From: a bacterium | GTDB lineage: Bacteria; UBA8248 | Reading direction: 5' to 3' | Length of the DNA stretch: 64,000 nucleotides | Assembly (NCBI GenBank): GCA_965213625.1 | Contig: CBDBZU010000004.1 | Location: 3,968,001 to 4,032,000, forward strand | In this document: positions 6,447 through 56,545 of the stretch, piece after piece | Layout: every line of letters starts with the position of its first letter | Position numbering within the stretch: position 1 is the stretch's first letter | Position numbers and translations under genes: made by a program | The notes under the pieces: model-generated | What the model saw: the letters and a program-made list of their open reading frames with translations, nothing else | What the model was told of the DNA's origin: nothing | Databases searched by the model: none

Positions 6447-7445
6447 CTATCCGCGAAGGGCCGCCACGTCGACCACCTGACCCGTCGTCGCACTCTGTAC
6501 GACCGCCTCGAGCACGGCGACGACTTCGAGCCCCTCGGGCCCGCCCGTTTCGGGCGTCGCCTCGCCCCGGATGCACTTGCAGAACTCATCCATCTCATCC
6601 GCGAGCGCGTCCCCGCCCTCGACCTCGACTTCCGTCCGAGCATCCTCGCCCACCTTGGCCACGTAGAGCTTGCCGCCTTCTTCTTCGCTGTAGGCGCGCA
6701 TCTTCGTGCCGAAGGCCGCGGTGTCGCAGATTTTGGGAACCACGAAACAACTGCCGATATGGCCCAGCGGTCCGCCCTCGTATTCGATGATGATGCTCGT
6801 CGCATCGTCGAGGTTCGTCTTGCCGAGCAGCTTCTTGCTGAATGCGGCCACCCGCTTCGCGGGGCCGGCGAGGTACTGCAGGTTGTCGATCATGTGGACG
6901 CCCAGGCCCGTCATCGAGCCCGCGGGGCATTCGGCGGGATCGTTGCGCCAGCCGTCTCTTGCTTCGAAACCCATGGGAAGCGAGAGGTTGGCTTCGAGCT
7001 GATGCACCACGCCGAGTTCGTCATTGTCGATCATCTCGCGCATCTTGCGGTTCGCGCCTTGGCGGCGGCGGTGGTGTCCGACTTGCAAGGTGACGTTTGC
7101 GGCGGAAGTCACCTCGTTCGCCTTCTTAGCCTCATCGACGGTGAGGGTGAGCGGCTTTTCGACAAAAACGTGTTTCCCGGCCGATGCGGCCGAGGAAATC
7201 ATGTCCAGATGCGTGGAATGGGGCGTCGCGACGATGACGCCTTCCACCTCCGGGTCGTTCCACAAATCGTCCAGGCTGTCCGCCGTCCGGCAGCCGTGTT
7301 TCTCCGAAAACGCTTTTCTGGCGTCCTCGCTGCGCGCGAAGCCCGAAACCACTTCGCCCGAACCGCTGCGGTTCAGGGCGTCCACCAGAACGCCGCCCCA
7401 CCAGCCAAGCCCGATAGAGGCGAGGCGCACCTTATCCGTAGCCAT
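6447..7445 (-). CDS. Gfo/Idh/MocA family NAD(P)-dependent oxidoreductase
   Basis: Rossmann motif IGLGWWG, VATPHSTH, HVFVEKP and GVHMID. Confidence 0.92.
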   Translation of the reverse strand: MATDKVRLASIGLGWWGGVLVDALNRSGSGEVVSGFARSEDARKAFSEKHGCRTADSLDDLWNDPEVEGVIVATPHSTHLDMISSAASAGKHVFVEKPLTLTVDEAKKANEVTSAANVTLQVGHHRRRQGANRKMREMIDNDELGVVHQLEANLSLPMGFEARDGWRNDPAECPAGSMTGLGVHMIDNLQYLAGPAKRVAAFSKKLLGKTNLDDATSIIIEYEGGPLGHIGSCFVVPKICDTAAFGTKMRAYSEEEGGKLYVAKVGEDARTEVEVEGGDALADEMDEFCKCIRGEATPETGGPEGLEVVAVLEAVVQSATTGQVVDVAALRG

Positions 7446-7602
7446 TTTTCTGCTCCTTATTTCCTGAATAGATGAGTTACCGGCATCTTTTTGAAAATTT
7501 TATTGAGTAGAGTTCGCCTGATTGCATGCAGGGCGCACCATAACCCAAAGGCGCGCGCTTGAAAACCACACCAGAAGAAATTGATCTGCATAAATGCCTG
7601 CC

Positions 7603-7634
7603 AAAAAAAACCTCCTCCCGTCTCCGGGAGGAGG
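7603..7634 (-). terminator. Intrinsic terminator
   Basis: CCUCCUCCCG-GAGA-CGGGAGGAGG followed by UUUUUUUU. Confidence 0.85.
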
Positions 7635-7755
7635 CTCTCGCAGGGGGTAGTTGCGAGAAGTATGAGTGCGTGGCGGAGGAGCGCCGACCCGATCAGCTAC
7701 TCCTTCCGCCGGCTAATTGAGGCGTGCCGCCTAAGAACGCCGCGATTAGCTCTGT
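7603..7755 (-). ncRNA. Putative sigma54-dependent small RNA (or attenuator leader), ~150 nt, four hairpins
   Basis: Begins 12 nt after a consensus -24/-12 box. Hairpins at 7712-7750, 7672-7710 and 7636-7658 (loop ACUACCCCC), then a terminator at 7611-7634 with U8. Confidence 0.65.
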
Positions 7756-7764
7756 TCATATATT

Positions 7765-7781
7765 ATGCAAGCATCGTGCCA
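7765..7781 (-). promoter_or_regulatory. sigma54 (RpoN) -24/-12 promoter
   Basis: The minus strand reads TGGCACGATGCTTGCAT, a match to the consensus TGGCAC-N5-TTGCW. Confidence 0.85.
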
Positions 7782-7844
7782 TTTTCCCCATCATCAAAAA
7801 CTCGTTATTTTTCAACAATATACTATTTTTAACGATAGGTCAAA

Positions 7845-7889
7845 ATGACATTTTGTCATAGGCCGCACAGAAAAACGACAATTCGTCAT
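7845..7889. promoter_or_regulatory. Paired upstream activator sites (bEBP enhancer)
   Basis: ATGACA-TTT-TGTCAT (7845-7859, perfect) and ACGACA-ATT-CGTCAT (7875-7889), 30 bp apart and ~90-135 bp upstream of the predicted TSS. An AT-rich, IHF-like stretch lies at 7805-7832. Confidence 0.65.
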
Positions 7890-7926
7890 GGCTGGGGAGC
7901 GTTTTACGCCTGAAAACTACCTGCGA

Positions 7927-8559
7927 TTAACTCGAGCCGGGTGATTTATCGGGAAATGCGTCGAACGCTTCTGAAACGGCGGCTTTCATCTCATCGCCCT
8001 GGGAGAGCGCCGTCGTCGCGGCGGCTTGCGATTCCCACAGCGTCTCCCGAGAAACCAGGTCAACCAGGCGAATTTTCACCCTCGCCACGCACACCTCGAC
8101 GTCTTCGCAGGTGCGCCCGCCTTCGGCCAGTAACACCGCCTGGGCGCCCGAACGCTTAAGCGCCGCCAGATGAGTTCCTGCGATTTCGCCACTCGCGTTC
8201 AGCAGATCATCCGCCTCTTTCTTTTTGAGTTCCTCCGGCCAGCGAAGCGCCAGATAGCCCTTTTCACTCAAGGCTTCGCGAATCAGAAATGCGCCCGCTA
8301 TCGTCTCGATCTTCCTCACATCGGGCGCCTTCAGCCCCGCCTGCGCGTAGACGTCGCGGAAAAGCCCCGTCCAGTCGCTCGGGTAGCGAAACGGGGCGAC
8401 GACGACCCGCTCGAGCGTCTGTATTTTCTTTGGCCTGGCGACGCCCTGTATCGTCGATATCTCATAGGCGCAGCCCGGGACCACCAGGAGCAGGACGATG
8501 ATCAGTCCCGTACGAAACCGCGATGCGGCAATCAAGCGTTTCAAGTGCCGACATTCCAT
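7927..8559 (-). CDS. Hypothetical lipoprotein
   Basis: Hydrophobic stretch GLIIVLLLVVPG-C with a lipobox-like Cys, followed by an alpha/beta domain (RVVVAPF...VKIRLVDLVSRETLWES). Start uncertain. Confidence 0.65.
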   Translation of the reverse strand: MECRHLKRLIAASRFRTGLIIVLLLVVPGCAYEISTIQGVARPKKIQTLERVVVAPFRYPSDWTGLFRDVYAQAGLKAPDVRKIETIAGAFLIREALSEKGYLALRWPEELKKKEADDLLNASGEIAGTHLAALKRSGAQAVLLAEGGRTCEDVEVCVARVKIRLVDLVSRETLWESQAAATTALSQGDEMKAAVSEAFDAFPDKSPGSS

Positions 8560-9269
8560 GCGATTCGCTCCACCAGGCCGAGGAGCAGCGCATACGCATC
8601 CAGGCTTTCGCGCCAGATCGACACGCCGTACAAGGCCGCCACCGCCCACCCTCCCGTCGAGACGAGCACTGCGCCGCCGATGAAAACGAACCCGAAAAAA
8701 CAAATGAAGGCCCAGGAGAAAGCCCGGCCGCCGCGCGCGATGTCCGGCTGCGACGCGCCCAGCGCCCGGAGCGTCATAAGTACGTGCAGGCACAGCGTCA
8801 ACCCTGAGAGAAACGCCGTCGCCCAGCCAATCTGCGGGTACCCGAATGCCCAGCCGAGCAGCGCGCCCAGAAGCAGGACCATGATCGTCGGCAGCGGGAA
8901 GAAATAAGGACCGAGCGTGATGAGGGGGTTCGTTCCGCTCAGGCCCACCTTGCCGCTGCCCTCGTTCACCTCGAACGAACTCACCTTCTTGCCCGTGAGC
9001 AGGGCGAAGGCCAGGTGCGTGAACTCGTGCACGAAGGCGTATAGAAATTCAGGGGGCGCCAGGCGATGCCAGACGGCGTATGCCACAACACCGATGATGA
9101 AGGCCCAGCCTTCCGGCGCGGGCATAAATGAGCCTTCGCTGCCTACGAAAAATGCGGCCGGGAGAATCTTCCCGAATGCGAGCGCTGCCCCCCAGCAGGC
9201 GGGCAGCAGCAGGGCCGCGACCATCCAGACCAGGGGTCTGAAGAGAATCGTTTTCATCCACTCCACCAT
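8541..9269 (-). CDS. Membrane metallopeptidase, M50B-like
   Basis: HEFTH motif in a TM helix, NPLITLGPYFFP, and a downstream Asp (SQPDI). Confidence 0.75.
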   Translation of the reverse strand: MVEWMKTILFRPLVWMVAALLLPACWGAALAFGKILPAAFFVGSEGSFMPAPEGWAFIIGVVAYAVWHRLAPPEFLYAFVHEFTHLAFALLTGKKVSSFEVNEGSGKVGLSGTNPLITLGPYFFPLPTIMVLLLGALLGWAFGYPQIGWATAFLSGLTLCLHVLMTLRALGASQPDIARGGRAFSWAFICFFGFVFIGGAVLVSTGGWAVAALYGVSIWRESLDAYALLLGLVERIAWNVGT

Positions 9270-44493: not shown

Positions 44494-44575
44494 GAATCCT
44501 CTTTCAACGCCAAATCCGAGTCTTCATGAGCAGGAGCGGAAATTCCATCTGCAGACTCGAGGTCCATATCTATAA

Positions 44576-44755
44576 TGACCCCGCCTTGTGCCGTGTGAGG
44601 TTCGCTTTGAACCCAGCTTTCGCCAGGTGGGCGTCCACGTCCATGGCTTTAGGCCGAACTCCCCGAGAGGAATAGCTCACCACCGTGGGGCAGGACTCCC
44701 GGTACATTAGTACTGGGTCAAAATGCTTTCCCCCATCACGAACACGGCAGGGTCA
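44576..44755 (-). ncRNA. ssrS: 6S RNA
   Basis: About 180 nt with complementary ends (UGACCCUGCCGUGUUCGU... / ...CACGGCACAAGGCGGGGUCA), in the conserved zapA-ssrS-ygfA position. Confidence 0.9.
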
Positions 44756-44831
44756 AAGCAAAAGAGTATTATGACACTAAAATCTGGGGATGAATACAGG
44801 GAAAAGCCATCGCGTGGGAAGAAACTTCTGT

Positions 44832-52788: not shown

Positions 52789-52863
52789 TGGTAGGCGCGG
52801 GCGGTTTTGAACCGCCGACCTCTTGCGTGTCAAGCAAGCGCTCTCCCCCTGAGCTACGCGCCT
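52789..52863 (-). tRNA. tRNA-Val(GAC)
   Basis: AGGCGCGTAGCTCAGGGGGAGAGCGCTTGCTTGACACGCAAGAGGTCGGCGGTTCAAAACCGCCCGCGCCTACCA; cloverleaf with encoded CCA. Confidence 0.97.
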
Positions 52864-56460: not shown

Positions 56461-56545
56461 TGGTGCGAAGGGGGGGACTCGAACCCCCACGCCCGAAGGC
56501 ACTGGAACCTAAATCCAGCGCGTCTACCAGTTCCGCCACCCTCGC
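56461..56545 (-). tRNA. tRNA-Leu(TAG)
   Basis: GCGAGGGTGGCGGAACTGGTAGACGCGCTGGATTTAGGTTCCAGTGCCTTCGGGCGTGGGGGTTCGAGTCCCCCCCTTCGCACCA; long variable arm. Confidence 0.97.

Follow-up and report, generated by a model that had tools for sequence, protein, structure and literature searches.

A probable sigma-54-controlled small RNA gene with a covarying structure in one family of uncultured bacteria

Organization of the RNA locus

We analysed a 64,000-nucleotide (nt) stretch of bacterial DNA (GenBank assembly GCA_965213625.1, contig CBDBZU010000004.1, positions 3,968,001 to 4,032,000; hereafter the window, with positions counted from its first nucleotide), and within it the minus-strand interval 7603-7889, which an initial annotation, made from the letters of the sequence, had described as a sigma-54 transcription unit for a structured RNA. 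We think it probable that this interval is a sigma-54-controlled, free-standing regulatory RNA gene. The host assembly measures 4.15 Mb, has 59% G+C and is 96.6% complete; positions in the genome outside the window carry the prefix C4. The elements that had been listed for the unit (two palindromes, a -24/-12 box, hairpins and a G/C stem followed by U8) were all found in place on the minus strand, to which the window coordinates below refer.

Read in the direction of transcription, the locus opens with two predicted upstream activator sites (UAS). The distal one, UAS1 (ATGACGAATTGTCGT, 7889-7875), is an imperfect palindrome centred at about -127, and the proximal one, UAS2 (ATGACAAAATGTCAT, 7859-7845), is centred at about -97, 30 bp from the centre of UAS1. 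An A/T-rich element at 7823-7802, recognised in the alignment and reading TATCTCATTGATAAATAAGG in most relatives, occupies the spacer between enhancer and promoter, and is followed by a sigma-54 -24/-12 promoter (TGGCACGATGCTTGCAT, 7765-7781) with no mismatch to the consensus. The -24 GG lies at 7780-7779 and the -12 GC at 7768-7767, and the transcription start (+1) is therefore expected near 7755. Taking the 5' end from this promoter geometry and placing the 3' end inside the U-tract, we predict a small RNA (sRNA) of ~153 nt (7603-7755).

The predicted sRNA folds with a minimum free energy of -77.4 kcal/mol (z = -5.24; RNAfold, 0 of 200 shuffles as good). Hairpin 1 (7712-7750) combines a nearly invariant upper stem and loop, GGCG-UUCWUAGGCGGCA-CGCC, with a lower stem that covaries freely. 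The sequence of hairpin 2 (7672-7710; GGCGG..GGAG..GAUYGGGUCGRC..CUCCUCCGCC) hardly varies among eight genera, and the same holds for the top of hairpin 1. It is followed by a linker, ACGCACUCAUACU (7659-7671), which the alignments and an unpaired probability of at least 0.9 mark as single-stranded; the family consensus of the linker is CACGCAAUCAUAC in most copies, and its AUYAU core is kept in all genera. Hairpin 3 (7636-7658), whose loop ACUACCCCC is C-rich, is variable; outside the genus it is either lacking or replaced. The loops of hairpins 1 and 2 in this RNA are UUAGG and CGG. The unit is closed by an intrinsic terminator, CCUCCUCCCG-GAGA-CGGGAGGAGG (stem 7634-7611) plus U8 (7610-7603), which is near ideal, with a 10-bp G/C-rich stem and a 4-nt loop.

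No conserved sense open reading frame (ORF) was found among 36 distinct RNA bodies: 15 of them had none at all, and the ORFs in the rest were of 31 codons or fewer and in inconsistent frames. This agrees with the initial annotation, which had seen no credible ORF after the start. A small ORF was rejected on both strands; an antisense frame of 24 codons recurs in many copies and shifts or vanishes in others.

A conserved sigma-54 promoter preceded by enhancer-like sites

The promoter reads TGGCACGATGCTTGCA at 7781-7766 and matches TGGCACG-N4-TTGCW without mismatch. The box alone was not significant in the window (one match with at most one mismatch versus 0.51 expected; 42 of 100 shuffles gave at least one). 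Over the 4.15-Mb genome, the strict pattern TGGYAY-N5-TTGCW occurred five times, the promoter of this RNA being one of the five. TGGYAY-N5-YTGC was present in 38 of 43 tabulated copies of the RNA, where it ended 29-39 nt upstream of the hairpin-1 loop anchor. Because it is thus conserved, and rare genome-wide, we regard the sigma-54 box as credible. In one copy the box stood 101 nt from the anchor owing to an insertion of ~70 nt. This insertion, between the box and hairpin 1, belongs to L018/L066 (relative G014), and use of the same start, if it occurs, would there extend the RNA at its 5' end.

A site within three substitutions of TTGACAWWWTGTCAA was found upstream of the box in 38 of 38 box-bearing copies. 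The palindrome pattern TGACRWWWYGTCR gave three matches in the window versus 0.13 expected, and none of 100 shuffles reached three; the three matches represent two sites, a symmetric site being counted on both strands. The sites upstream of this RNA have the forms TGACA-W3-TGTCA and TGACG-W3-TGTCG. Across the family, the consensus of UAS2 is (T/G)TGACA-WWW-TG(T/G/A)CAA, and UAS1 is conserved as ATGACGATTTGTCGT in most of 30 aligned loci. Both palindromes of the initial annotation are therefore present at the spacing described, but the first is imperfect and ambiguous between two site classes: it resembles both class A (TTGACA-N3-TGTCAA-like) and class B (TACGA-N4-TCGTA-like), ACGATTTGTCGT lying within ATGACGATTTGTCGT. 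In genus g2 the distal site is TGCCA-CAC-TGGCA, a symmetric change that preserves the dyad, as expected if a dimer binds the site.

The A/T-rich element is possibly a DNA-bending site or a site of the IHF (integration host factor)/HU type. It matches only in part the IHF consensus WATCARNNNNTTR, as quoted in PMC3045617. The IHF-like spacer proposed at first thus holds as a conserved A/T-rich element, but not as a full match to the IHF consensus. Eight ORFs of the HU/IHF family are present in the genome, and the TATCTCATTGAWA motif of the element also occurs upstream of a second sigma-54 RNA candidate described below. The genome carries rpoN (DNA-binding domain, 201 bits). With a perfect box, enhancer palindromes, rpoN and activators bearing the GAFTGA motif all in one genome, the proposal of a sigma-54 unit is supported at the sequence level.

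Distribution and structural covariation of the RNA

BLAST located the RNA element in all 22 genomes of the genus and in 8 of the family's 14 other genomes. A covariance model, R1, built from 36 distinct copies, detected the RNA in 37 of 42 family genomes and seven of nine genera. R1 found no RNA in genus g5 (0 of 4 genomes; 2.0-2.2 Mb, 90-97% complete) or genus g3 (0 of 1; 87% complete), and in nine genomes from elsewhere in the phylum it gave no match at E < 1e-3. The one remaining R1 match, of 27 bits (E 0.0013), was inside the genus. The core pattern of the RNA had 29 exact matches in public genome contigs, all of them from metagenome-assembled genomes of uncultured organisms; the taxon labels, where given, were Nitrospinota, Nitrospinaceae and Candidatus Tectomicrobia, and public records of the lineage carry sponge-metagenome and other environmental labels.

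Covariation was tested on a 36-sequence alignment, A1, with a structure consisting of hairpins 1, 2 and 3 and the terminator. In this structure 96.8% of cells were paired, versus 43-52% when the partners were slid by 1-3 columns, and 19 of 48 pairs changed on both sides versus 5-10 in the slid controls. None of 500 shuffles reached the observed value on any of five pairing measures. The helices contributed unequally. In hairpin 1 (helix 1), nine of 16 pairs changed on both sides, with 96.9% of cells paired; hairpin 3 (helix 4) had five such pairs out of seven, and the terminator (helix 5) four out of ten, with 98.1% of cells paired. In hairpin 2 (helices 2 and 3), ten of 15 pairs never varied and one changed on both sides. 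Homolog and covariation checks of the kind suggested in the initial annotation thus both came out in favour of a conserved, structured element.

Hairpin 3 was missing or replaced in L026, in L027/L028 and in all five copies from genus g2. In copies that lack it, a U/A-rich linker leads directly into the C-rich terminator. The C-rich loop to which the initial annotation had drawn attention is accordingly mainly a feature of this genus, and not a universal one.

The RNA did not match a known family in Rfam, as the earlier reading of the locus had anticipated. The best alignment was to anti-hemB, at 23.4 bits versus a gathering score of 49.5, and involved only the last 57 nt (hairpin 3 and terminator). 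At E up to 10 over 6500-9000, there were seven matches, all sub-threshold and driven by the terminator, and Qrr was not among them. Over the whole window, nothing reached its gathering score except a 6S RNA and two tRNAs elsewhere. The 6S RNA (RF00013) is at 44574-44756 (minus strand; 79.8 bits versus a gathering score of 46.4), and the tRNAs are at 52792-52863 and 56464-56545 (both minus strand). A literature search for regulatory RNAs of this lineage (Nitrospinota/Tectomicrobia) found none among the papers listed, which is not proof of absence. We conclude that this predicted RNA of ~150 nt was previously uncatalogued and, in the genomes searched, occurs in one family of uncultured bacteria; the type of regulator is itself a known one.

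Relation of the RNA unit to the downstream gfo gene

Downstream of the RNA, and outside it, lies a conserved neighbour that Pfam identifies as a Gfo/Idh/MocA oxidoreductase gene (gfo, 6447-7445). A sigma-70-like element, recognised by consensus resemblance (TTTCAA, 16 nt, TATGGT; 7537-7564), is situated between the terminator and gfo. It is conserved in the alignment, its TTG-N4-TAT core is kept in other genera too, and it is absent from the sigma-70 scan listing; from its sequence and position it is likely to be the promoter of gfo itself. The gfo 5' leader (7470-7535) and the homologous stretch in relatives form a small hairpin with a covarying stem (CCUG/CAGG, CCGUA/UACGG, CCAAGUG/CACUCGG) and a conserved loop, GMAAUCA, which in several relatives shares AAUCAUAC with the sRNA linker.

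Six extra copies of the RNA were found, none with gfo downstream, and four of the six face a convergent gene. Five of them are paralogues in genus g1 (L060-L064), 5-7 kb away and directly behind a gene with an ARPP-1 domain, and have no sigma-54 box, palindromes or gfo; the next gene is a sodium:solute symporter in two and is convergent in three. The sixth (L065, in another genus) has palindromes and a sigma-54 box of its own, and its next gene is convergent. The paralogues retain precisely the segment from hairpin 1 to the U-tract, with the hairpin-1 stem fully compensated. L060-L064 (relatives G002, G013, G016, G012 and G011) begin ~110 nt after the stop of the ARPP-1-domain gene, behind a GC hairpin, and may be made from the 3' untranslated region of that gene or from an unrecognised promoter.

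The initial annotation had also considered an attenuator of the gfo-xdh genes. Here the sigma-54 promoter would serve gfo-xdh, and regulated read-through at the terminator would control the operon; in a weaker form, occasional read-through would add sigma-54-dependent expression of gfo. One observation in particular speaks for such a leader and against a free-standing gene: the main copy is immediately upstream of gfo and co-oriented with it in 37 of 37 loci from eight genera (including 29 of 29 relatives and 7 of 7 further loci in which the gfo start was read in the downstream sequence), and so constant an adjacency could mean a cis link, beyond mere synteny. In principle CUCCUC, from the 5' arm of the terminator, has a possible pairing partner in the GAGGAG of the hairpin-2 5' arm, and an RNA-library contig of one relative stretches upstream from gfo, takes in the sigma-70-like element and stops ~15 nt before reaching the terminator; such a contig cannot show transcript ends, and the library may contain DNA. 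The copies described above, all six of which do without gfo, argue against a leader. So do the energetics, since in the nascent RNA hairpin 2 beats the antiterminator by 15.6 kcal/mol (-57.3 versus -41.7), and the sequence comparison, GGAAGGAG of the initial proposal not being conserved and most relatives having GAGAGGAG or GCGAGGAG. The terminator is near ideal, the conserved sigma-70-like element intervenes before gfo, and the RNA has no junction resembling a ligand pocket and no match to a known riboswitch in Rfam. We therefore consider a cis-acting leader quite improbable, and the attenuator proposal is disfavoured.

Two further results count against the gene as we read it. A simple terminator scan reported no site over the locus in either of two runs, and contigs from four RNA runs (four studies) cover 7300-7548, that is, gfo and its leader, and none covers 7603-7889. 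The terminator was accepted despite the scan because it is plain in the sequence, appears in the minimum-free-energy fold and covaries; the RNA-run data, being contigs and not raw reads, have no bearing on expression of the RNA either way. Both results would also suit an interval that is not an RNA gene at all, such as a conserved protein-binding region or a remnant in which the likeness to a promoter and a terminator is incidental. We give almost no weight to such a DNA-level element: in four helices the compensatory changes retain pairing of the RNA type on one strand, G-U pairs included, promoter, spacing and terminator are conserved jointly in 38 copies, and what the paralogues keep is exactly the part that begins at hairpin 1 and ends with the U-tract. 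These data demonstrate the anatomy of the RNA unit, its conservation and covariation, its presence in multiple copies and its independence from gfo.

Candidate activators and sigma-54 promoters in the genome

A genome search with PF00158 identified two full sigma-54 interaction domains, at 245.5 and 241.8 bits (239 and 242 in the Pfam scan). They belong to a GAF-type activator (C4:845443-846921) and to an NtrC-type response regulator (C4:536388-537764) that is co-operonic with an 800-aa PAS/HisKA kinase; the GAFTGA motif is present in both. Two weaker matches are NtrC-family paralogues without GAFTGA, the loss of which is generally taken to abolish sigma-54 activation. One is an apparent fusion, a 711-codon ORF at C4:2846316-2848451 (L129:817-2952), in which an NtrC-like regulator (receiver, degenerate sigma-54 AAA+ domain, Fis-type helix-turn-helix) is joined to a complete LpxC deacetylase domain. 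The other, of 463 aa at C4:1743130-1744521 (L128:631-2022), has a degenerate Walker A motif, an intact Fis-type helix-turn-helix and an N-terminal 147 aa without a Pfam match, and from these features is probably not a sigma-54 activator.

Four credible sigma-54 promoters were found in the genome, two of them driving candidate non-coding RNAs. The other two are tandem and paralogous, and lie in A/T-rich intergenic DNA at C4:836592-836607 and C4:837209-837224 (L074). Each precedes a small membrane ORF (MEF…), and farther downstream are Usp, a 100-aa ORF, a RimK-type ATP-grasp enzyme and an aldehyde-dehydrogenase-like gene. Their dyads, ACGATAAATCGT and ACGATATATCGT, have the palindrome form ACGAT-AWAT-ATCGT, unlike those of the RNA. 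Matches to this Usp/RimK promoter pair were found in 20 of the genus's 22 other genomes; in 17 of these 20, promoters and GAF-type gene were on one contig, 1-9 kb apart. In genus g5, exact TACGA-W4-TCGTA sites occurred only ~5 kb from the GAF-type gene, in four of four genomes, and a reversed control pattern had no matches. Because class B sites neighbour the GAF-type gene both in the genus and in g5, this activator most likely owns sites of the TACGA-W4-TCGTA type. Palindromes resembling class A in the low-GC genus g5 were also examined, and none of the ten had a sigma-54 box within 500 nt; this has no bearing on the activator.

For the RNA promoter, with its TTGACA-W3-TGTCAA class of site, we lean towards the NtrC-type response regulator as the activator, by elimination and from the phyletic pattern: genus g5, in which the RNA is missing, has no activator other than the GAF-type one. 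The response regulator gene is 20-50 kb from the RNA in many relatives. This assignment is tempered by two points: apart from elimination it draws on what is effectively a single independent loss, that in genus g5, and UAS1 resembles the GAF-linked class about as well as the other. Dual input, with the GAF-type activator also acting through UAS1, is possible on the sequence of that site.

A second sigma-54 RNA candidate

Scanning the genome for TGACA-N3-TGTCA sites, as had been proposed, revealed one other A/T-spaced dyad (TTGACATATTGTCAG, C4:1338038-1338050), and it too is upstream of a sigma-54 box. The box, TGGCACGATTCGTGCA (C4:1338214-1338229), is 165 nt from the dyad and is followed by no ORF; ~190 nt downstream is a hairpin, GGGGCAUGUCC…GGGCGUGCCCC, followed by a U-rich tail, and beyond it lies a convergent gene. 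We take the region C4:1338030-1338430 (L098:4030-4430) to hold a second candidate RNA of ~190 nt. Its fold has a z of -2.86. The candidate recurs in 21 of the genus's 22 genomes. Where upstream sequence was recovered, the copies carry an invariant GATTGACATTTTGTCAG, together with several C-rich stretches and the same TATCTCATTGAAATA element. No Rfam match was obtained for the candidate, and because R1 finds one copy in the genome, the two RNAs are not homologous.

Possible modes of action

We propose the following course of events. A dimeric enhancer-binding protein would bind the sites ~97 and ~127 bp upstream of the start, with the A/T-rich element between enhancer and promoter probably aiding DNA looping. 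Sigma-54 RNA polymerase at the perfect -24/-12 box would then be remodelled and start near 7755, and transcription would end at the GC-rich hairpin and U8 (7603-7634). Should the NtrC-type response regulator be the activator, a two-component signal would have the RNA as its output; the GAF-type activator may in addition be admitted at the imperfect distal site. The RNA may then act in trans by Hfq-independent base pairing, using the linker, the C-rich loop of hairpin 3 (in this genus) and CUCCUCC motifs, and its partners would be G-rich or ribosome-binding regions of mRNAs.

That the RNA is an Hfq-independent, trans-acting base-pairing regulator has, in our judgement, close to an even chance, if slightly on the lower side. 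The loops of hairpins 1 and 3, the linker and the tail are exposed in this RNA. Its pyrimidine-rich stretches, together with three CUCC-type motifs, point to G-rich or Shine-Dalgarno regions as possible pairing partners. C-rich sRNAs elsewhere pair with such regions. Neither Hfq nor CsrA was detected in the genome (assembly 96.6% complete).

Pairing is not uniformly supported, and three sets of data tell against it. First, the C-rich loop is mainly conserved within the genus and is not kept across genera. Second, a target screen in this single genome, in which nt 83-121 were compared with 3555 start regions (duplex plus opening energies; heuristic starts from crude GC3-based gene calls), did no better than 10 shuffled queries: the percentiles were -39.4, -33.9 and -29.4, versus -39.7 +/- 2.5, -34.9 +/- 1.7 and -30.4 +/- 1.5 for the shuffled queries. 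Similarly, complement searches with five invariant or exposed stretches gave many 2-mismatch matches inside genes, and none at a start was convincing. Third, the most conserved parts are invariant paired stems, which would fit a protein-binding RNA at least as well. The complement searches also gave one exact 14-nt match (CGTGGCGGAGGAGC), complementary to the hairpin-2 3' arm, near C4:4032609 (minus strand), ~600 nt beyond the window; it falls within a gene, the next start on the same strand being 3.5 kb away, and may be chance in GC-rich coding DNA.

The same sigma-54 gene might instead produce an RNA that binds or sequesters a protein, held by the invariant hairpin-1 loop and hairpin 2. Models for this mode are the 6S and CsrB-type RNAs and GlmY, which acts by protein sequestration. 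Sequence is invariant in the top of hairpin 1 and in hairpin 2 even though pairing would tolerate change (10 of 15 hairpin-2 pairs, eight genera); the hairpin-3 loop, the supposed seed, varies or is lacking; no signal came from the target screen; and paralogues on different promoters keep the same core in five genomes. However, no homologue of CsrA or Hfq was found, repeated GGA-type motifs are lacking, and invariant stems can also arise from pairing with several targets. On balance protein binding is possible but unlikely, and we favour base pairing over it only modestly.

Discussion

Qrr RNAs act with Hfq and are roughly 100 nt long. With the Qrr/LuxO system of Vibrionaceae, the RNA described here shares a small gene ended by a terminator, a sigma-54 promoter and two upstream palindromes of 13-15 bp, which in both systems take the form of 5-6 nt, W3 and 5-6 nt; further points of likeness are the activator, likely to be an NtrC-type response regulator here, and the presence of several copies in some genomes. 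It differs in having no sequence or structure similarity to Qrr (Rfam RF00378; no Rfam hit at E up to 10), and in coming from another phylum, with ~150 nt, four hairpins and a genome without detected Hfq. The LuxO site, given as TTGCAWWWTGCAA in PMC10162802, does not occur here; the site of this RNA is TTGACAWWWTGTCAA, with another half-site. The same paper describes V. fischeri Qrr1 as activated by two enhancer-binding proteins with overlapping sites (PMC10162802), and the hybrid distal site of this RNA could, by analogy, parallel such two-activator control.

GlmY and GlmZ of Enterobacteriaceae are controlled by GlrK/GlrR, sigma-54 and IHF, by way of upstream activator sites and intervening IHF-type sites, and homologous sRNA copies of this type can be wired to sigma-54 or sigma-70 promoters (PMC3045617). 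The present RNA resembles them as a sigma-54 sRNA with upstream activator sites and, likely, a two-component regulator of the NtrC family, and its sigma-54 main copy and sigma-54-less paralogues echo their mixed promoter wiring. In contrast, the GlrR pattern, TGTC-N10-GACA in the same text (PMC3045617), is absent here, there is no Rfam match, and the context is gfo/xdh and not control of glmS. The RNA belongs to neither the Qrr nor the GlmY/GlmZ family.

Two other families have C-rich motifs in common with it. The cuckoo RNAs (alpha-proteobacterial alpha-r14, CcsR/RSs0680) have 2-4 adjacent hairpins with CCUCCUCCC in each loop, according to PMC4615179. Several adjacent hairpins and the exact nonamer CCUCCUCCC, which resembles an anti-Shine-Dalgarno sequence, occur here too. 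The nonamer, however, has a single occurrence, on the 5' side of the terminator stem, where it is paired, whereas in cuckoo RNAs it is in every hairpin loop and the loops are conserved on variable stems, unlike the invariant hairpin 2 of this RNA. The taxon is also another one, and a sigma-54 promoter is no defining feature of the cuckoo family. Burkholderia anti-hemB (Rfam RF02837) has a C-rich hairpin loop, a CCU-rich terminator and a U-tract in common with this RNA, but the alignment, besides falling short of the gathering score and being confined to the 3' end as given above, skips 26 model positions. The likeness is one of composition and terminator, not homology.

Sigma-54-driven sRNAs are known from a few well-studied systems, such as Qrr and GlmY, and in each the RNA is the key output of a signalling pathway. 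A tentative and rather unlikely extension of our results is that the sigma-54 regulon of this clade is tiny and half RNA, with one PAS kinase/NtrC-type system whose only direct outputs would be two unrelated sRNAs and a second signal entering through the hybrid UAS1. Both RNAs would then stand behind the same TTGACA-W3-TGTCAA enhancer and A/T-rich bending element, and UAS1 would also be bound by the GAF-type activator of the neighbouring stress (Usp/RimK) operon. If true, this would be an independently evolved design in the style of LuxO/Qrr, in which a signal is converted to RNA only.

The sigma-54-controlled RNA gene that we regard as probable alters no principle. It provides a well-delimited RNA family, marked by structural covariation, from an uncultured lineage, and the covariance model R1 is directly usable for annotating metagenomes. 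With two functional-looking activators and four credible promoters, two of which would drive candidate non-coding RNAs, the whole enhancer-dependent network of this organism could be tractable through a few reporter assays in a surrogate host.

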